A stretch of 64,000 bases of DNA from Candidatus Nomurabacteria bacterium (lineage in GTDB: Bacteria > Patescibacteriota > Minisyncoccia > Phycocordibacterales > UBA9973). Positions 1-64,000 of the stretch are shown piece after piece. Each line of letters opens with the position of its first letter. Positions within the stretch are counted from its first letter, which is position 1. A program made the translations under genes and the position numbers. The stretch lies in contig CP064973.1 in assembly GCA_016699365.1 (NCBI GenBank), forward strand, positions 64,195-128,194. The letters are read 5' to 3'. Under the pieces are notes generated by a model that made no database searches, was not told the origin of the DNA, and worked only from the letters and a program-made list of their open reading frames with translations.

Positions 1-1631
1 ACGATATCAAGAAGCTTCGCAGATACGATAGGATCTCCGTTTTGAGGTTTCAATAGATTTTTATTTGAAGCCATCAAGTCACGAGCCTCGTTTTGAGCAT
101 CATTTGAAAGAGGTAAGTAAACAGCCATCTGGTCTCCGTCGAAGTCAGCGTTGAATCCTGTACAAACAAGTGGGTGAACTTGAATAGCATTACCTTCGAT
201 TAGAACTGGATTGAAAGCTTGAATACCAAGTCTGTGAAGTGTAGGAGCGCGGTTCAACATCACATATTTACCTTGAATTGCCTCTTCTAGAATTGCCCAA
301 ACTTCTGGAACTCCTTCTTCAATCAATTTGTTTGCTCCACGTATGTTGAAAGCAAGTTCATTTTTTAGAATTTTTGAAATTATGAATGGTCTGAATAGCT
401 CAAGTGCCATGTGCTTTGGTAGACCACACTGGTTTAGTTTAAGCTGAGGACCCACAACGATAACTGAGCGTCCTGAATAGTCTACGCGCTTACCAAGAAG
501 GTTTTGACGAAATAGACCTTGTTTACTTTTTAGGTTATCAGAAAGAGATTTAAGTGCTCGTTTTTGAGACTGAGAAACTGCCTGAGAATCATTTTGTTTT
601 GCAATTGAGTTATCTATAAGCGCATCTACTGCTTCTTGTAGAATACGTTTTTCGTTACGCAAGATAACATCTGGTGCTCCAATCTCTTTTAGTTTCTTTA
701 GACGATTGTTTCGGTTTATAACGCGACGATATAGATCGTTTAGATCACTAGTTGCATGCCTACCTCCATCAAGAGCAACCATTGGTCGCAATGCTGGTGG
801 AATAACAGGTATAACAGAGAGGAACATCCACTCTGGACGAATCTTTGAATAGATCATTGAACGAAGTAGTGACATACGGCGCTCTAGCTTTTCTTTATCG
901 ATAGTACTTGCCTTTTCAGACATCTCTTCTGTTTGCTTTTTCAATTTTTCTAAATCAAGAGATTTAAATATATTGAAAATAGCCTCAGCTCCAATAGCTG
1001 CTTCAAAACAGATACCGTACTTCAATGAGAAGTGGTGGTAAGATATTTCGTTCAATACTTTACCAGTATGAATTTCAGCAATTTCTTTCTTTGTATTTAC
1101 AAGAAGATTTTTAAGTTTTTCACGAGTCTCCTCATCTTCAATACTCTTAACCTTTGCCTTGTATTCACTTTCTATATTTTTTATGATTTTAGCCTTTTCT
1201 TCTTCATGAACTTTAGTGATGATATATCCAGCAAAGTAAATTACTTTTTCTAAGTCAGAAACTGGGATATTTAGAAGTATAGACATACGAGATGGAACTC
1301 CACGCAAGAACCAAATATGAGCAACTGGACTTGCAAGCTCAATATGTCCCATACGTTCACGTCGAACTATAGACTTTGTAACTTCAACTCCACACTTTTC
1401 ACATATAATATCCTTGTAACGAATACGTCTGTATTTACCACAGTAACATTCATAGTCTTTTTCTGGACCGAAAACTCGCTCATCGAAAAGACCTCCACGT
1501 TCTGAACGTCCAGTTCGGTAGTTTATAGTTTCAGGTTTTGTAACCTCTCCATAAGACCAATCGCGTATATTTTCAGGTGAAGCCAGTTTGAGTGTTATGT
1601 AGTCAAAGTCACTTGTATCAATTGTTTTCAT
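1..1631 (-). CDS. rpoC: DNA-directed RNA polymerase beta' subunit, N-terminal part (gene continues beyond the window start)
   Basis: Minus-strand translation from the ATG at 1631 gives [56 protein letters not shown]... and further on ...[11 protein letters not shown] (catalytic Mg motif). Lies immediately downstream of rpoB in the canonical order. Not in the ORF track because there is no stop in the window. Confidence 0.9.
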
Positions 1632-6243: not shown

Positions 6244-7353
6244 TTACAGATTACCTCTTGTTGCCTGCTCTCTCTCGATTGCTTCAAAAAGAGCTTTGAA
6301 ATTCCCTTTACCAAAAGTCTTTGCTCCACGGCGCTGGATAATTTCGAAGAAAAGCGTTGGCCTGTCTGTCACTGGCTTTGTAAAAAGCTGGAGCATATAC
6401 CCTTCATCATCATGATCTACAAGGATATTGAGCTTCTTGATCATCTCGAAATCCTCCTCTATTGGGAATTTTACCCTCTCAAGGACGTCTTCATAATATG
6501 TTTCTGGTACATGTAAAAACTCAACTCCTCTTCTTCGTAATTGAGATACGGTATACAGAATGTCATCTGTTGCTAGTGCGATATGTTGCACTCCGGAACC
6601 ATGATAGAAATCCAAGTATTCTTGAATTTGAGATTTATTTTTCCTGCTTTCGGCCGGCTCATTGATTGGAAATTTTATATATCCATTGCCATTTGCAACA
6701 ACCTTGCTCATAAGCGCAGAATACTCAGTTGAGATGTCATTGTCGTCGTATGTAACAAGTAATTTAAAACCCATTACATCCTCGTAGAACTTAACCCACT
6801 CATTCATTTTTCCGAGCTCTACGTTCCCCACACAATGATCTACATATTGAAGACCTACTGTTGATACAACACCGTTGCGATCAATTGGTTTATACCCCGG
6901 CATAAAAATGCCCTTGTATTTACTTCGGTCAACAAATTTGTGAATTGTATCTCCATATGTTTTGATGCCAGAAACTGAAACACTTCCCTCGCTTACATCA
7001 CAAAATTCTGTAGGAGACATGAACTTGATCGCACCTCGTGCAATAGTTTCTTCAAAACTTTTTACGGCATTTGGTACCTTAAGAGCAATAACCTTCACTC
7101 CATCACCATGGATCCTCACATGCTGTGAGATTTCGCTTTCAGGATCAAATGAAGTTGTAAAAACCAGGACGATTTTATTCTGCTTCAAAACATAACTTGC
7201 CTTGTCACGAACGCCGGTTTCAAGCCCAGCATATGCAACAATTTCAAATCCAAAAGCATTTTTATAGTAATATGCCGCCTGCTTAGCATTGCCAACATAA
7301 AACTCAATGTGGTCTGTGCCGAGTATCGGCAGAAAATCTTTTTGTTCTTCCAT
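6244..7353 (-). CDS. hppD: 4-hydroxyphenylpyruvate dioxygenase
   Basis: 369 aa. N-terminal HIEFYVGNAKQAAYYYKNAFGFE and the two-VOC-domain layout typical of HPPD. Confidence 0.8.
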   Translation of the reverse strand: MEEQKDFLPILGTDHIEFYVGNAKQAAYYYKNAFGFEIVAYAGLETGVRDKASYVLKQNKIVLVFTTSFDPESEISQHVRIHGDGVKVIALKVPNAVKSFEETIARGAIKFMSPTEFCDVSEGSVSVSGIKTYGDTIHKFVDRSKYKGIFMPGYKPIDRNGVVSTVGLQYVDHCVGNVELGKMNEWVKFYEDVMGFKLLVTYDDNDISTEYSALMSKVVANGNGYIKFPINEPAESRKNKSQIQEYLDFYHGSGVQHIALATDDILYTVSQLRRRGVEFLHVPETYYEDVLERVKFPIEEDFEMIKKLNILVDHDDEGYMLQLFTKPVTDRPTLFFEIIQRRGAKTFGKGNFKALFEAIEREQATRGNL

Positions 7354-55902: not shown

Positions 55903-56476
55903 TTACCAATTTAGTATCCTTTTTACTTTAGGTCTAAGGGATCTGTATACAACAAAAGAAGTAACCGCCCCCAAAACAAACCCCGCTAAAATATCAAATG
56001 GAAAATGTACACCTGCAACAATCCTAGATACACCAATAATCAAAGCTCCTAGAAGATAGAAAATTCCAATTCTTTTGTGGTACATAAAAAGAGCAACTCC
56101 TAGCGCAGAAAAAAAAAGTTGCGTGCCCAGAAGGAAAAGAGTCATAACTACCATAATCAAAAAGTGGTTTTATTTCTGTGTAAGTTATAAAAGGCCTCGG
56201 ACTGTCGAAAATATCCTTTAAAATAAGGACGAAAAGCCATGACAGAAATGCGGACGTGAGAATGACAGAAGCTTCCCCGATCTTTCTTTTCACCTTATCA
56301 AAAGAATACTGGGAACCTTCTTCGTCGTGATGAAATATCAGAAACAAAAATACTCCAACTGTTAGCAGTGTACCGAAAGATGTGGCCAAGAATACAACAA
56401 TAGAATCAAAAAACACAGACTCCGATGTAAGGCTATTTAAGAAAATAAATATATTTTTATCTAATATTCCAATCAT
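55903..56476 (-). pseudogene. PAP2-family phosphatase (undecaprenyl-diphosphatase-like), frameshifted at a T9 homopolymer
   Basis: PAP2 motifs 1 and 2 (KDIFDSPRP, PSGHATFF) lie in ORF 56024..56476. Motif 3 (SRIVAGVHFPFD) lies in the overlapping ORF 55903..56160 in another frame. The frame switch maps to the A9/T9 run at 56104-56112. Likely sequencing/assembly indel or a slippage tract. Confidence 0.65.
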
Positions 56477-57302: not shown

Positions 57303-58423
57303 TTACAATCCAAGAAATTCGTTACGCATATCATCTCTGTGTATTGCTCGAGCATACTTACGCATACTCATCAAAATACCAAGACCTAAAAATGAAGTGA
57401 GCAGGTGCGAACCTCCGTAACTCATAAAAGGCAATGTAATTCCCGTAACTGGCATAAGGCCGATATTCATCCCAACATTGATTATAAAGTGACTCATAAA
57501 AAGTATTGCGAGACCCATACCAAAAAGCACTTCGAAGTTTGATGAACCATGCATAGCATTTGCAAGTATCCTCCAGAAAACTATCCCGTATAAAATGAAA
57601 AGTAATAAAACTCCTATGAATCCCCATTCTTCGGTATAAGCAGAAAATATAAAGTCTGTCTCATATTCTGGTAAAAATTGTAGTCTAGACTGAGTGCCGT
57701 ATCCTACCCCTTTGCCCAATATCTCCCCTGAACCAACTGCTATGGTCGACTGGTAAGCATTGTATCCAGTACCCTGTATATCAGCCAAAGGATGGATGAA
57801 GTTCATGATTCGAGCTTTTTGATAGGGCTGAAAAACAAATAACCACAGAATAGTAAATATCACAGCTCCGGCACCAACTACAAACATCAAATGTTTTTTT
57901 GACATCCCAGATACCAAGACCATCCCAAACCATGTCAAAAATATAATAATTGCACTACCAAAGTCTGGCTGTAAAAAACTAATATAAATGGAACAAAAGC
58001 ATATAACCCAGAAATAACTATATGCCTCCAGTGAGCAATCTCCACATGTCTTCGAGAAAAATATTTTGCAAGCATCAAAACCACAACAAGCTTCATCATG
58101 TCTGAGGGCTGGAGAGATATTCCTCCAAAATCAAACCAACTCTGCGCCCCTTTCGATACTGTTCCAACAACAAACAAAGCTAAGAGTAAGCCACAAAAAA
58201 ACAAGAAAAGATACACCAATACATCTGTGCGTTTCAATATTCTCACATCGATAGAAGAGACAACAAAGAAAACAATAAAGGATATAAGTATCCACAATAA
58301 CTGCCTATCAAACAGAACTGCTTGCCCTGTAAAAGAATGCATCGTGATCAACCCTGCAAACAAAATAGGTAAAAGGGCTAAAATCAAAATCCAGTCAATT
58401 TTTCGTATATTTCTCTCTATCAT
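57303..58423 (-). pseudogene. SEDS-family peptidoglycan glycosyltransferase (FtsW/RodA), frameshifted at a T6 homopolymer
   Basis: ORF 57935..58423 carries the N-terminal half including the LQPSDMMKL motif. The frame of ORF 57303..57938 extends upstream without a start and encodes the conserved …FLQPDFGSAIIIF… motif, then the C-terminal half (GTQSRLQFLPEYETDFIF...). The switch maps to the A6/T6 run at 57973-57978. Confidence 0.7.
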
Positions 58424-59254: not shown

Positions 59255-59297
59255 CGAGTTTTCTCGATGTTTTTATTTTTAGAAATATATACTTTGT

Positions 59298-59402
59298 TCT
59301 GGCGACTACCTACTTTTGCCCTAAGACTATCATCGGCACAACAGCGCTTAACTTCTTTGTTCGGAATGGAAAAAGGTGTGACCACTGCGTCAAATCACCA
59401 GA
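59298..59402 (-). rRNA. rrf: 5S ribosomal RNA
   Basis: Minus strand TCTGGTGATTTGACGCAGTGGTCACACC...CCGAACAAAGAAGTTAAGCGCTGTTGTGCCGATGATAGT...GTCGCCAGA aligns with bacterial 5S (CCGAAC...GAAGTGAAAC...GCCGATGGTAGT). Ends pair as helix I. Confidence 0.8.
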
Positions 59403-59937
59403 ACAAAACATATATTTTTTCTATGGAACGAAATGTGTATTGAAAAACACCTCGGCAGGTACGACGGTACCGTACGGAGAAAATTTCTAGCAAGAAATTT
59501 TTGTGTGTTTTGAAATATACATGAGTGTATATTGTATGTGATTTTCAGATTTCCTAATAGGAATCGAATAATTAGTACTTCTCGGCTCAACACATTACTG
59601 TGCGTACACCTAAAGCCTATCAACGTGATCATCTCTCACGGTTCTCAAACGATTCCTTATCTTAGGGGGGGCTTCCTTCTTAGATGCTTTCAGAAGTTAT
59701 CCCTTCCCGACATAGCTACCGAGCAGTCCATTTGGTAATAGAGCTCGTACACCAGAGGTCAGTCCACTCCGGTCCTCTCGTACTAGGAGCAGCGCCCTTC
59801 AAGAATCAACGAGCGCAGTAGATAGGAGACCAACCTGTCTCACGACGGTTTGAACCCAGCTCGCGTACCTTTTTAATTAGCGAACAGCTAAACCCTTGGC
59901 AGCTTCTCCACCGCCAGGATAAGGTGAGCCGACATCG

Positions 59938-60299
59938 CTGTCGATTTATCTCAAGAAAAATAAAAAACTTTTCAATCTTTCTTGAGAGTCTTCTGTCACC
60001 AGAAGGATCGGACTATATCTTCATCCTTTCATATAAATATGATTAGGAGATTGGCGTTTAGTCTCTGAGGATTCTTCATGTCTTTTGTAAAAAAGATTTA
60101 GAAGTCTTTCCTGCTGATTGTCTCAACATGCATAATTTTTTAAAACCACTCAGTATATTCTTTCGAATTGCTGTTTGGGTATATGCATTTAAAAGAGAGT
60201 TCCAGCATTTGGCCAATTTTTTGTATCTTTTATTTTGCTATCTACAACAAATATAAAAGACGGCTAATAATATCTCTATCATGGCACCCCGATATGTTA
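59938..60299 (-). mobile_element. group I intron (362 nt, ORF-less) in 23S rRNA domain V (E. coli ~2500 region)
   Basis: Exon sequence ...GGAGTTCGGCACCT | [insert] | CGATGTCGGCTC. 5' exon ends in U, insert ends in G. The insert contains S-element AAGATATAGTCC (plus 60010-60021, rc) and R-like TCAGAGACTAAACG. Confidence 0.75.
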
Positions 60300-60521
60300 A
60301 GGTGCCGAACTCCGCCGTCGATATGAACTCTTAGGCGGAACTAGCCTGTTATCCCCGGAGTAGCTTCTATCCGTTAATCTTCGGCCGCATCTAATGCGTA
60401 CCATCGGTTCACTAGGTTCTGCTTTCGCACCTGCTCGAGATGTCCCTCTTACAGTCAAGCCAGCTTGTGCCCTTACACTATCGGCACGATTTCCATACGC
60501 GCCTAGCTGACCTTAATAAAC

Positions 60522-60562
<41 letters not shown>

Positions 60563-60869
60563 ACCCACCAGATACTGTCTCTCTGTGTTTTTGCCACAGG
60601 GATTAGAATATACATGTCACAAGAATGGTATTTCACTGACGAGTATTACACAGCCGAGACCGTGCACATAACCTCTCCCATCTATGCTACGCAGGTAAAA
60701 CGTATATTCAATATCAAGTTGTAGTAAAGCTTCCGGGGTCTTTTCGTCTATCTGCGCTTAACCGGCATCTTCACCGGTATTGTATTTTCACCGAGCTATT
60801 CCCCGAGACAGTTCTCCAGTCATTACACCATTCGTGCGCGTCGGAACTTACCCGACAAGGTATTTCGCT

Positions 60870-61075
60870 CTTCTATACCTAAGAAGGACTCTATCTTCAT
60901 CCTCTCTTTCGAGGTGGGATGCTTGACGCTGGTCTCTCGTTAGTCAAGTTTGGACCACATATCATTACTGACATGTAGGTAGCTTTCGAATGATTTAATA
61001 ATTTTTTAATTTAATTGTTTACCTTTTTCTACAACAGTCCCAGTCCTTTCACATACAACCGAAGTCATATGCGAA
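60870..61075 (-). mobile_element. small group I-like intron (206 nt, ORF-less) in 23S rRNA at the GGTCCTAAGGT|AGCGAAAT site (E. coli ~1917 region)
   Basis: Conserved exon junction GGTCCTAAGGT ... AGCGAAATaCCTTGTCGGGTAAGTTCCGAC interrupted by a 206-nt AT-rich insert containing AAGATAGAGTCC (S-like) and GAGAGACCAGCG (R-like). Exon ends in U, insert ends in G. Confidence 0.6.
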
Positions 61076-61110
<35 letters not shown>

Positions 61111-61961
61111 CAGGGCTTATATCAGTCAGCTTCTCCCTACCCGAAGGCAGAGAGAAACCGCCGATATTTGACCTTCTCGCATTGGTCAGGTGTCACCCCC
61201 TATACATCCTCTTACGAGTTCGCAGGGAGCTGTGTTTTTGGTAAACAGTTGCCAGAGATACTTTCGCTGCGCCCCCCATAATGGTGAACTACAATATAAA
61301 TACTGAAGTCACCATTATGGGGGGAAGCCTTATTCCGAAGTTACGGCTGCTTTTTTGCCGAGTTCCTTGGGGAACACTCACTCGTTCGTCTTGGTCTTCT
61401 CGACCCGATCACCTGTGTTGGTTTGCGGTACGGTTTCTGTTCTGTTATGCTTAGAAATTTTTCTTGGAAGCGTGCTTTGTAAAATTTACATGGGCGAACC
61501 CACATATTTATGCTCTACTTGGATGTCGCTTTTACGCCAGTTTCCGGATTTGCCTAGAAACCACCCTCATAGCACAAACAGAAATCCAATAATCTGCTCT
61601 ACATACTACCCTCCGTCCTTCCATCGCACAGAAAAGAAGTCATGGAATATTAACCATGTGTCCATCACGTTCGGCTATCGCCATCTGCTTAGGACCGACT
61701 AACCCTTGGCTGATCAACATCGCCAAGGAAACCTTGATCTTTCGACGTGCAGGGATCTCACCTGCATTGCGGTTACTTGTGCCAACATTCTTACTTCGAC
61801 ACGCTCCAGCATGGGTCACCCCTTTGCCTTCAACGCAGAGTCGAATACTCTCCTACCACTCCATATTTCCTCAGAAATATGAAATCCTCAAATTCGGTAC
61901 AATGCTTAGCCCCGATTATCTGCGGCGCGGAATCTCTTGATGAGTGAGCTGTTACGCTTTC

Positions 61962-61993
<32 letters not shown>

Positions 61994-62572
61994 TCATTGT
62001 CGAAGAAATTCCACATCCTTGGTTTGCACTTAACATTGATTTAGGGACCTTAATTAGAGATCTGGGCTGTTTCCCTTTTTACTGACGGAGCTTCGCCCCC
62101 GTAGTCTAACTGCTGCGCTTTTAACTCTTGGTATTCGGAGTTTGATAGATGTCGCGAGATTGCTCCCTGTCGAAATCTTCCAGTGCTCTACCCCCAAGAG
62201 GAACGCACAACGCTAGCCCTAAAGCTATTTCGGAGAGAACCAGCTATTACCAGGTTCGATTAGCTTTTCACTCCAACCCACAAGTCATCCGAGAGTGTTA
62301 AACGGCTCACCGGTTCGGGCCTCCAGTGTGATTTCTCACACCTTCACCCTGCTCATGGGTAGCTCACCTGGCTTCGGGTCTTATGTATACTACCAATTAC
62401 GCGCTATTAACACTTGGTTTCCCTGCAGCTCCAGTCTTTTAAAACTTTAGCTAAGCAGCATACATAAACTCGTTGGCTCATTCTTCAATAGGCACGCCAT
62501 GGCGGACCCGAAGGCCCGCTCTGACTCTTTGTAAACATATGGTTTCAGGTCTATTTCACTGTCCTTTCGGAC

Positions 62573-62611
<39 letters not shown>

Positions 62612-63365
62612 ATCTCTACATGTATTTAGCCTTGCCGGTTAGTTCCGGCGGATTCCCTCAAGCTATTCGTGTCTTGAGGTACTCAAGAATGACAACAAAA
62701 GAGATATATTAATTTCGTGTACCGGGCTATCACCGTCTTTGGCGTTGCTTTCCAACAACTTCTACTATCAATACATTTTGTAACTCTTTACGTAATAAAA
62801 CGTCGTTATCACCTTACAACCCCGATTAATAATATCTTGCGACATTATCATTCGGTTTGGGCTCTTTCCATTTCGCTCGCCGCTACTTCGGAAATTTTGT
62901 CCTTACGGACTTTGTTTTCTTTTCCTCCAGGTACTGAGATGTTTCACTTCCCTGGGTATACTCTTTTTGATTAATCAAAAAGTTATTGAGGTTTACTCAA
63001 TAGGGTTTCCCCATTCGGAGATCTTCGGATATATCGGTTGCTAGGCACCTCCCCGAAGCTTATCGCAGCCATGCTACGTCCTTCATCGCCATGTAGAGTC
63101 AAGGCATCCACCATATGCTCTTAATTTCCTATTAGGAAATCTAAAAACCACATACTCACTAAATACTCTCTCCGGAATATTTAGTGTTTTGAATTCATAC
63201 TAAAACCAAAATCCAACCGCTTGGATAATATCAATATCTAGTATGAATTCACTCTGTTTACGACACGACTTAAAAGACCCCATGTTCTAGATAACCTAGA
63301 ACAAAAAGATTGTATGCCGTAACAGAATTCAGTTTTCAATGAGTAATCGTCCGGTAAATTTTTGA

Positions 63366-63392
63366 CTAAAAAAACCGCCATTTGGCGGGCCA
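63366..63392 (-). terminator. rho-independent terminator upstream of the 23S promoter region
   Basis: Minus strand GCCCGCCAAATGGCGG hairpin followed by TTTTTTT. Confidence 0.5.
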
Positions 63393-63532
63393 AGCTAAAA
63401 CAAAAGAGTTTTAGAATCCCCGCTTAGACTTTGTTTTGTTAGTTATATTCATAACAGTACAAAGAGTATATAGGAACCAAAATCCAATGTCAAGCTTTTT
63501 CTTGTAATATTCTGAGAGTATTAAAATATAAT

Positions 63533-63562
63533 AAAAGCCCTTAAAAATAAGGGCTTTTTAAA
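63533..63562. terminator. bidirectional rho-independent terminator
   Basis: aagccc-ttaaaaataa-gggctt hairpin flanked by A/T runs, directly after the 63567..63920 gene. Confidence 0.55.
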
Positions 63563-63566
63563 TACT

Positions 63567-63920
63567 TTATTTATCTATATTTTCAATAAATTTACCGAGA
63601 CCAGAATGCAAATTTTTAAGTCCGGTTTTCATAGTTTCCTTCAAATCTTTACTGAAGTCTTTTCCAGCATCTTTCATGCGAAGATATGTTTGCAGTGCAG
63701 AACGTCCTGTAGAAATAGCACTGAATTGAAACTGGCCTTCAACATGAAATGTATCGAGTAAATCATACTCTGATAAATAACATACGGAAAACACATTATC
63801 AAAAACCCTACCAATGAAAACCACTTCGCCGGGCATAAGCTTTTCCTTGCTGCTAAGCGGAGACAAGAGCAAATTTTTATATTCATCTCCATAAGTTTCA
63901 CTGCTTAATTTTTTAAACAA
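63567..63920 (-). CDS. hypothetical protein
   Basis: 117-aa ORF upstream of the rRNA locus. It occupies the place where a 16S gene would be in a canonical operon. Confidence 0.35.
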   Translation of the reverse strand: MFKKLSSETYGDEYKNLLLSPLSSKEKLMPGEVVFIGRVFDNVFSVCYLSEYDLLDTFHVEGQFQFSAISTGRSALQTYLRMKDAGKDFSKDLKETMKTGLKNLHSGLGKFIENIDK

Positions 63921-64000
63921 AGCCTCAGCTTTATTTTCAGTGACAATGAAAAATAAAGTCGCAATCTTCGGACTTGTTGTAACTACTTCCTCAAATGACA

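Follow-up and report, generated by a model that had tools for sequence, protein, structure and literature searches.

A group I intron without an open reading frame at position 2500 of the 23S rRNA gene of a Parcubacteria-like bacterium

The 23S rRNA gene and its largest insertion

We analyzed a stretch of 64,000 nucleotides (nt) from contig CP064973.1 (the window), which carries on its minus strand a complete 23S ribosomal RNA (rRNA) gene followed by a 5S rRNA gene (Table 1). The largest piece by which this 23S gene exceeds that of E. coli is 362 nt long. An earlier reading of the DNA letters (the sequence-only reading) had taken this piece for a group I intron in domain V without an open reading frame (ORF). 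Our analysis bears this out by a covariance-model match, the insertion point, the splice-site helices P1 and P10 with a terminal guanosine (omega-G), a covarying P2-P9 fold, and the absence of an ORF.

In order to place the insertion, the window 23S gene was aligned with MAFFT to the 23S gene of E. coli (L001; three-digit L numbers are our labels for loci and contigs). As already described in the sequence-only reading, the two genes are collinear up to GGCACCU, after which the conserved sequence resumes at CGAUGUCGGCUC, with an AT-rich insert of 362 nt in between (32% GC, 60299..59938). The annotated E. coli gene has one additional base at its start (GGGGAUAACAGGC begins at position 2445, canonically 2444), and because it thus runs one base ahead of the canonical numbering, the insertion lies between U2500 and C2501. 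We refer to this site as L2500. The interrupted strand, from G2494 (GGCACCU) to position 2506 (CGAUGU), is located in the central loop of domain V and is part of the peptidyl-transferase center.

The junctions read GGCACCU / UAACAUAUCGGGGUGCC at the 5' side and AAAUCGACAG / CGAUGUCGGCUC at the 3' side, with slashes at the boundaries. The upstream exon ends in U and the insert in G, as noted previously and as can be read directly from the sequence. The first and last bases of the intron (U and G) differ from the adjoining exon bases, and the boundaries therefore cannot slide.

The Rfam model of group I introns, which together with the placement on E. coli 23S rRNA had been proposed as a check, matched the insert over its full length (Intron_gpI, model positions 1-253, window 59989..60265). 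The score of 80.1 bits is above the gathering threshold of 50 (E = 9.6e-19 for the 64-kb window), and the other L2500 introns scanned all scored lower with Rfam. The core motifs pointed out in the sequence-only reading are present as exact matches, with the S element AAGAUAUAGUCC at 60021..60010 and the R-like element UCAGAGACUAAACG at 60068..60055. Lone short motifs of this kind are not significant, as 36 of 100 shuffled sequences also gave an R match with two mismatches.

The statement that the insert carries no homing-endonuclease ORF is correct as well. No ORF with a start codon that overlaps the insert is longer than 52 amino acids (aa). Frames without a stop codon reach at most 53 aa in the sense and 64 aa in the antisense direction, and neither of these two has a Pfam match. 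Phage genomes, searched with blastn, contained no match to the intron.

Table 1. Features of the 23S rRNA locus and of the L2500 intron. Intron position p corresponds to window coordinate 60300-p. MFE, minimum free energy fold; percentages and fractions of relatives refer to the 47 ORF-less introns described in the text.
Feature	Intron positions	Window coordinates	Strand	Basis and remarks
23S rRNA gene, host of the L2500 intron		59553..63134	-	3582 nt including insertions; Rfam LSU_rRNA_bacteria 2226 bits, model positions 1-2925 (complete)
5S rRNA gene, 3' of the 23S gene		59297..59402		Rfam
ORF-less group I intron, 362 nt	1-362	59938..60299	-	Between U2500 and C2501 (E. coli numbering); MAFFT against E. 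coli and Rfam
P1, 5' exon strand GGCACCU (G2494-U2500)		60300..60306	-	U2500 (60300) is the 5' splice-site nucleotide
Internal guide sequence AUAUCG-GGGUGCC	5-17	60283..60295	-	5-10, P10 strand; 11-17, P1 strand
P2 hairpin, GAGA (GNRA) tetraloop	18-33	60267..60282	-	MFE; 6/6 pairs compensatory; 96.5% of cells paired in 47 relatives
P2.1, long hairpin, optional peripheral element	39-75	60225..60261	-	MFE; in some relatives, absent in others; covariation uninformative
P3, 5' strand AUUGGC	83-88	60212..60217	-	Pairs with 245-250; 99.6% of cells paired; 4/5 tested pairs with double changes
P4-P6 domain	93-231	60069..60207	-	MFE; RNAalifold and pair counts in close subfamily, core helices 100% paired
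P4	93-98/183-188			
P5	102-105/176-179			
P5 extension, P5a-d	112-172			P5a 112-118/166-172; P5b 120-122/153-155; P5c 127-129/147-149; P5d 132-135/140-143, GAAA loop
P6, P6a, P6b	189-191/229-231, 196-199/223-226, 204-209/214-219			
R element	232-250	60050..60068	-	J6/7, P7 5' strand (G235, bulged A236, G237-A241), P3 3' strand 245-250; exact motif
P8 hairpin	252-276	60024..60048	-	MFE; 100% paired and compensatory in subfamily; 90% in family after 1-nt register shift
S element	277-290	60010..60023	-	J8/7 and P7 3' strand (UGAAGAUAUAGUCC); exact motif; nearly invariant in 47 relatives
P9 hairpin, GUGA (GNRA) tetraloop	295-310	59990..60005	-	MFE; 6/6 pairs compensatory
P9.1 hairpin, peripheral	314-350	59950..59986	-	MFE; position common only to L137, L203, L190; poorly alignable
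Omega-G, 3' splice site	362	59938	-	Direct reading; 33/47 relatives end in G
P10, 3' exon strand CGAUGU (C2501-U2506)		59932..59937	-	Pairs with intron 5-10, 6 bp; 96% of cells paired in relatives
Second 23S insertion (L1931), 206 nt		60870..61075	-	Exactly between U1931 and A1932; follows U, ends in G

Fold of the intron

The 5' exon end GGCACCU pairs with intron positions 11-17 (GGGUGCC) to form P1, a helix of 7 base pairs (bp) that ends in a U2500·G11 wobble. The pairing was read directly from the sequence and recovered by RNAalifold, and 97% of the cells are paired in an alignment of 47 relatives. As the P10 strand lies directly 5' of the P1 strand, one contiguous guide sequence is predicted to align both exons.

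The unconstrained MFE fold of the insert recovers all helices except the P7 pseudoknot, with a z-score of -5.87 relative to shuffled sequences. P7 consists of G235-C290, a bulged A236, and the pairs G237-C289 through A241-U285, an arrangement that we take to match the guanosine-binding site known from the Tetrahymena and Azoarcus structures. RNAalifold also suggested a pairing of the P3 5' strand with the P7 3' region. We rejected this pairing as an artefact of a method that is unable to model pseudoknots, since there is support for P3 as well as for P7. A canonical 11-nt GAAA tetraloop receptor was sought by eye in P8, and the sequence found there is similar, not canonical.

Relatives at the same site and covariation

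Insertions at L2500 were collected from one genome per species of GTDB, with counts referring to the matches listed, and from metagenomes. In GTDB, at least 21 loci have a GGCACCU that is not directly continued by CGAUGUC, and 17 of these contain a complete insertion exactly between U2500 and C2501. Among the matches listed, the hosts from the Candidate Phyla Radiation (CPR) are Parcubacteria, Campbell-, Yonath-, Nomura- and Jacksonbacteria, and the other hosts include a Coxiella endosymbiont, Omnitrophota, Actinomycetota/Thermoleophilia, Eremiobacterota and Chloroflexota. Most of the matches listed in the same scan (99 of 123) are intron-less 23S genes in which GGGTG, the 5-nt guide pattern, occurs by chance 24 nt downstream. 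They served as controls and include eleven CPR genes. Occupancy of L2500 among CPR is patchy.

One GTDB match is of a different kind. In the Nocardiopsis dassonvillei chromosome (L060), GGCACCT at oriented position 6670 is followed by CCACGGTGGTCT..., and the remainder of the 8-kb locus contains no downstream CGATGTCGGCT exon. The rRNA copy could be truncated or carry a large insertion, or the match could be due to chance.

The metagenome scan used the CPR-type P1 motif, so that the pattern searched for included the guide sequence. It yielded at least 120 loci, 106 of them with complete introns of bimodal length (230-570 and 790-910 nt). The long forms encode LAGLIDADG_2 proteins (E-values 1e-34 to 1e-45), with 6x1j and I-SceI as the nearest solved relatives, and the gene is located in the P6 loop, between P4' and P7. 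Of the roughly 120 introns collected, the nearest relatives of the window intron (L229, L137, L203 and L190) share only about 76-79% identity with it in the core. Two of them (L137 and L203) have the P5 extension of the window intron in common (CCCAAACAGYAAUUCGAAAG...CUGNGYGG).

In order to assess the fold by covariation, 47 ORF-less L2500 introns were aligned (MAFFT E-INS-i, as for the other intron alignments; alignment A4). In this alignment, 94.9% of the cells are paired, versus 35-42% when the partners are slid by one to three columns, and double changes occur in 25 of the 50 pairs. None of 500 shuffles attained these values. Compensatory changes are abundant in P2, P3, P8 and P9. P7 is invariant, except that G235-C290 is replaced by A-U in 14 of the 47 introns. 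P4 reads UGCUG/CAGCA in the subfamily of the window intron and ACGGU/ACCGU in the rest, with each pair changed on both sides. Within this five-member subfamily (alignment A2), the core helices are 100% paired, and compensatory changes are found in P5, P6a/b, P8 and P9.

The peripheral regions are more variable. Between the P7 5' strand and P3', 39 of the 47 ORF-less introns have 37-93 nt that form two hairpins, in the position of P7.1/P7.2. The window intron has 0 nt at this place (between GAGACU and AAACGCC), as have seven others of the 47. It combines the longest class of P5 extension with a P9.1 hairpin.

Two side observations concern the ORF-less relatives. First, 14 of the 47 appear to end in A rather than G before CGAUGUC (L082, L141, L142, L145, L155, L170, L181, L182, L190, L210, L213, L218, L229 and L240). 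These introns may be devoid of omega-G, like the Coxiella intron Cbu.L1917, or the true boundary or exon may differ. Second, the P6 region of an ORF-less L2500 intron from Nomurabacteria (L118:947-1315) contains a frame (...GNTVGSL...) that by eye resembles DNTVGSLTQ, the N-terminus of the LAGLIDADG_2 proteins of its relatives, which suggests a decayed endonuclease remnant. Several other ORF-less L2500 introns have P6 regions of 100-160 nt.

Splicing and origin of the intron

We consider it very probable (about 0.9) that the window contains a functional ORF-less L2500 group I intron in the 23S gene of a Parcubacteria-like CPR bacterium, and that it is removed by two-step splicing initiated by guanosine. 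In the proposed mechanism, the guide at intron positions 5-17 would pair with G2494-U2500 as P1 and thereby position the U2500·G11 wobble where cleavage is to occur. A free guanosine, held in P7 (G237-C289 with the bulged A236), would attack the bond after U2500, and G362 would then replace this guanosine in the P7 site. P10, formed by intron positions 5-10 and C2501-U2506, would hold the 3' exon while U2500 attacks after G362. Ligation of the exons would restore the peptidyl-transferase strand with the junction GGCACCU / CGAUGUCGG. The scaffold for these steps would be provided by P4-P6 with its P5 extension and by the GNRA-capped hairpins P2 and P9.

Accurate removal should be essential, because the insertion site is in the peptidyl-transferase strand and CPR usually have a single 23S copy (PMC11270868). 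The intact core and the identity of the intron across strains (see below) fit this expectation. CPR rRNA insertions are absent from transcripts, according to metatranscriptome-based work summarised in PMC11270868, and group I introns in Patescibacteria tRNA genes, mostly of subgroup IA, self-splice in vitro (PMC13011429). By analogy, these published results make activity of the window intron likely, without being a proof for it.

Because it has no homing endonuclease, the window intron cannot move by itself, and it would persist through clean splicing. Most likely, it descended from L2500 introns that carried an I-SceI-like LAGLIDADG gene in P6 and lost this gene later. A cycle of invasion, endonuclease decay and ORF loss fits the endonuclease-bearing relatives at the same site and the putative remnant in L118.

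Several points weigh against this interpretation. We infer splicing of this particular intron from its sequence. In the alignment of 47 introns, P4 and P8 were scored in the majority register, which is offset by 1 nt, so that for these two helices the rows of the window intron itself are counted as not paired. In P1 and P10 no covariation can appear, as the exons do not vary and the search had been made with a pattern that contained the guide. The peripheral hairpins P2.1 and P9.1 are idiosyncratic and without covariation support. Finally, as the intron is devoid of the P7.1/P7.2-like insertion of most relatives, what stabilises it may be the lineage-specific P5 extension and P9.1, or a protein.

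The last point leads to the alternative that the intron is spliced in vivo, but only with the help of a protein cofactor (a LAGLIDADG maturase encoded elsewhere, a chaperone, or a helicase), because a peripheral domain that stabilised it was lost. Proteins are required by many organellar group I introns, and the missing P7.1/P7.2-like domain and the low GC content would be in keeping with such a need. However, the core is complete and canonical, with a covariance-model score unsurpassed among the L2500 introns scanned, the P5 and P9.1 extensions together with three GNRA loops could compensate for the missing domain, and nothing maturase-like stood out among the ORFs of at least 120 aa in window positions 40000-64000. 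We regard cofactor dependence as unlikely and favor an intron that would fold and act on its own.

A more far-reaching idea is that the intron acts as a checkpoint. Guanosine-dependent splicing at L2500 (and of the L1931 insert described below) might gate the formation of active ribosomes via the GTP/guanosine pool or the folding state, and the loss of P7.1/P7.2 and the gain of the P5 extension and P9.1 might represent tuning of the splicing step. The idea arises because the intron interrupts the peptidyl-transferase strand, the 23S gene is probably present only once, and the host has a reduced set of ribosome-biogenesis factors (PMC12641178). We consider a checkpoint function very unlikely.

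Still more improbable is a decayed intron or intervening sequence (IVS) that no longer splices and is either kept in mature 23S rRNA or excised by RNases with no joining of the ends, so that the 23S rRNA would be in fragments. The ends of RNase III-processed IVSs in 23S genes pair into a long stem, the elements sit in known helices (H9, H25, H45), and they have no ribozyme core. The window insert shows no mutual pairing of its two ends in the MFE and centroid folds, is located in the central loop of domain V, and contains a full ribozyme core in which the catalytic pairs, P1, P10 and omega-G are all intact. Its sequence is identical across strains, and a retained insert or a nick between U2500 and C2501 should be very damaging. 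What can be said for decay is that some members of the family end in A rather than G, and that fragmenting IVSs do exist in bacterial 23S genes, probably including those of CPR (PMC11270868).

Assemblies and host

The exact SecD protein of the window is also encoded on a contig of an NCBI metagenome-assembled genome (MAG; GCA_017991335.1, L002) and on several ENA contigs. Three of these assemblies (L002 and, from ENA, L003 and L007) reach the intron, which has the same junctions and is 100% identical over 386 aligned bases. In all three, it is located on the same contig as the protein genes of the window, including the identical SecD gene. The flanking protein-coding DNA is 98.5-98.9% identical between the window and other assemblies. 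An assembly artefact or chimera, or the rRNA of an organelle or contaminant, is effectively refuted already by this recurrence of the insert beside the protein genes of the genome and by the bacterial nature of the neighbouring genes, even though misassembly is common in rRNA regions, the 23S gene is where several contigs break, the 5' end of L003 is divergent, and the window has homopolymer indels.

For the 3' exons of the window 23S gene, identity is 85% with a 'Candidatus Parcubacteria' MAG (L114) and 82-84% with Yonath-, Nomura-, Taylor- and Saccharibacteria loci, versus 72-76% with bacteria outside the CPR, including E. coli. The window has a GC content of about 37% and one tRNA gene per 64 kb, and its protein genes are ordinary bacterial ones (SecDF, FolD, RodA, HtpX, LemA, MsrB, and a UvrD-like helicase). 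On the basis of 23S similarity and genome traits, we assign the host to the Parcubacteria group of the CPR (Patescibacteria). A search of the whole window with Rfam gave no match to 16S rRNA, neither in the 866 nt that precede the 23S gene (63135..64000) nor elsewhere, and protein-coding genes were called in the corresponding upstream region of the MAG contig (L002:1-2672). The 16S gene appears to be unlinked from the 23S-5S pair, an arrangement often reported for CPR.

Some differences between the assemblies were seen outside the intron. Relative to L002, a RodA/FtsW-family gene (57303..58423, minus strand) is split into two ORFs by T6 instead of T7 near 57979, and a PAP2 phosphatase gene (56024..56476, minus strand) is truncated to 150 instead of 190 aa by T9 instead of T8 near 56117. 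Both genes are intact in all other assemblies examined, and the disruptions are probably long-read homopolymer errors in the window assembly rather than pseudogenisation. The 23S-5S spacer (59403..59552 versus L002:6256-6445) differs by about 40 nt and gives no megablast alignment, with an identity of 98.5% or more in the genes on both sides. In L003, the first 430 nt are only 82% identical to the window 23S segment, versus 99.8% for the rest, and this 5' end probably stems from the 23S gene of another CPR bacterium, joined on as a chimera. The case illustrates how CPR rRNA genes break assemblies.

A second insertion at L1931

The same 23S gene contains a second, shorter insertion, which resembles a group I intron only in part, chiefly in its 3' half. 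The Rfam model gave a score of just 22.2 bits (E = 0.0013, 401-nt search), and in the alignment only 8 bases of the insert stand against the 89 model positions that span P4-P6. Inserts of 198-233 nt of the same family occur at the same L1931 site in nine other CPR-like loci. The structure of the family is well supported by covariation, with 96.3% of the cells paired, versus 34-42% after sliding, and double changes in 28 of the 57 pairs. Its elements are a 5' hairpin that starts at intron base 1, a GNRA-capped hairpin, P3, P8, P9 and a terminal G, and there is a J8/7-P7-like segment (GAAGAUAGAGUCC). The two strands of P3 are only about 15 nt apart (UAAC-GAGAGACC-AR), which leaves no P4-P6 domain at the canonical place.

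Two segments of the family are complementary to exon sequence. The segment URGGACUG is complementary to exon CGGUCCUA, and GCUACCU, which hardly varies, matches the spliced junction AGGU/AGC as its complement. The latter is a candidate guide, which would form a 4-bp P1 with U1931-A instead of U·G and a 3-bp P10. In the ten sequences, GCUACCU shows only two substitutions, both C-to-U changes that keep G·U pairs. Altogether, the insert looks like a compact group-I-like intron that dispenses with P4-P6. A search of the literature for natural group I introns without this domain, made with limited access, gave nothing relevant. This insert is more unusual than the L2500 intron and likelier to teach about minimal group-I-like ribozymes.

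Other differences from the E. coli gene are minor. There are expansions of 68 nt (62774..62841, near E. coli position ~286) and of 16, 12 and 11 nt (61525..61540, 61142..61153 and 62901..62911), and a 17-nt deletion near E. coli position ~2783.

Comparison with known introns

The sequence-only reading had stressed that rRNA introns are rare in bacteria, with CPR among the exceptions, and had called the intron a lineage marker. CPR are indeed an exception, to the extent that the surprise was overstated, as rRNA introns are the rule in this group of hosts. Among 348 CPR 23S genes, 82% have insertions; 433 group I introns were reported, and 222 ORF-less group I introns cluster around the peptidyl-transferase center (Tsurumaki et al., 2024; PMC11270868). 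The same study found no relation between insertion position and host phylogeny; L2500 is occupied patchily in many phyla, and as a lineage marker the intron is weak. The warning about rRNA-based binning and primers was reasonable, and several assemblies of the species do break inside the 23S gene. This gene will be split or given a wrong length by annotation and by rRNA-based tools, primers and probes across positions 2490-2510 will fail on DNA, and assemblies tend to break here.

The window intron agrees with the ORF-less group I introns of CPR 23S genes (Brown et al., 2015; PMC11270868) in host group, gene, clustering in domains IV-V, Rfam model and absence of an ORF. Several domain V sites in PMC11270868 were new for bacteria, and L2500 may be among them or among the sites 23IS9-11. 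A literature search for L2500 group I introns found no paper, and one directed at chloroplast and other LSU genes and LAGLIDADG proteins at this position gave nothing relevant. The intron is a new and divergent member of a kind known and common in CPR, and it changes no current view.

The classical bacterial 23S group I introns are likewise all located in domains IV-V, at L1931 in Thermotoga and Simkania, at L1917 and L1951 in Coxiella burnetii, and at L1917, L1931 and L2593 in Synechococcus. They differ from the window intron in their sites, in mostly encoding single-motif LAGLIDADG endonucleases, and in belonging to other phyla. A 2007 compilation of bacterial rRNA introns lists L1917, L1931, L1951 and L2593, and no L2500. 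The titles of the cited papers state self-splicing for the Thermotoga and Coxiella 23S introns.

With respect to subgroup IA (the type of phage T4 td and Twort orf142-I2), most of the L2500 family has hairpins in the P7.1/P7.2 position, whereas the window intron has none. These hairpins are the hallmark of the subgroup. The family looks IA-derived, and the window member, in which peripheral elements seem to have been exchanged, is not placed in IA.

A further comparison is with the L2500 introns of CPR and other bacteria that contain a homing endonuclease gene (for example L029, L032, L114 and L116). They share the site, the P1/P10 guide (…AUCGGGGUGC) and the P7/J8/7/P9 core (87-96% identity). 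They differ in their length of 790-1070 nt and in encoding a double-motif LAGLIDADG protein of 190-230 aa (I-SceI family) in the P6 loop, whereas the P6 region of the window intron is 37 nt long and contains neither an ORF nor a remnant. The window intron is a compact, divergent addition to a large and little-described L2500 family, which is spread over CPR and several other phyla and covers the whole cycle, from forms with an endonuclease to forms without an ORF.

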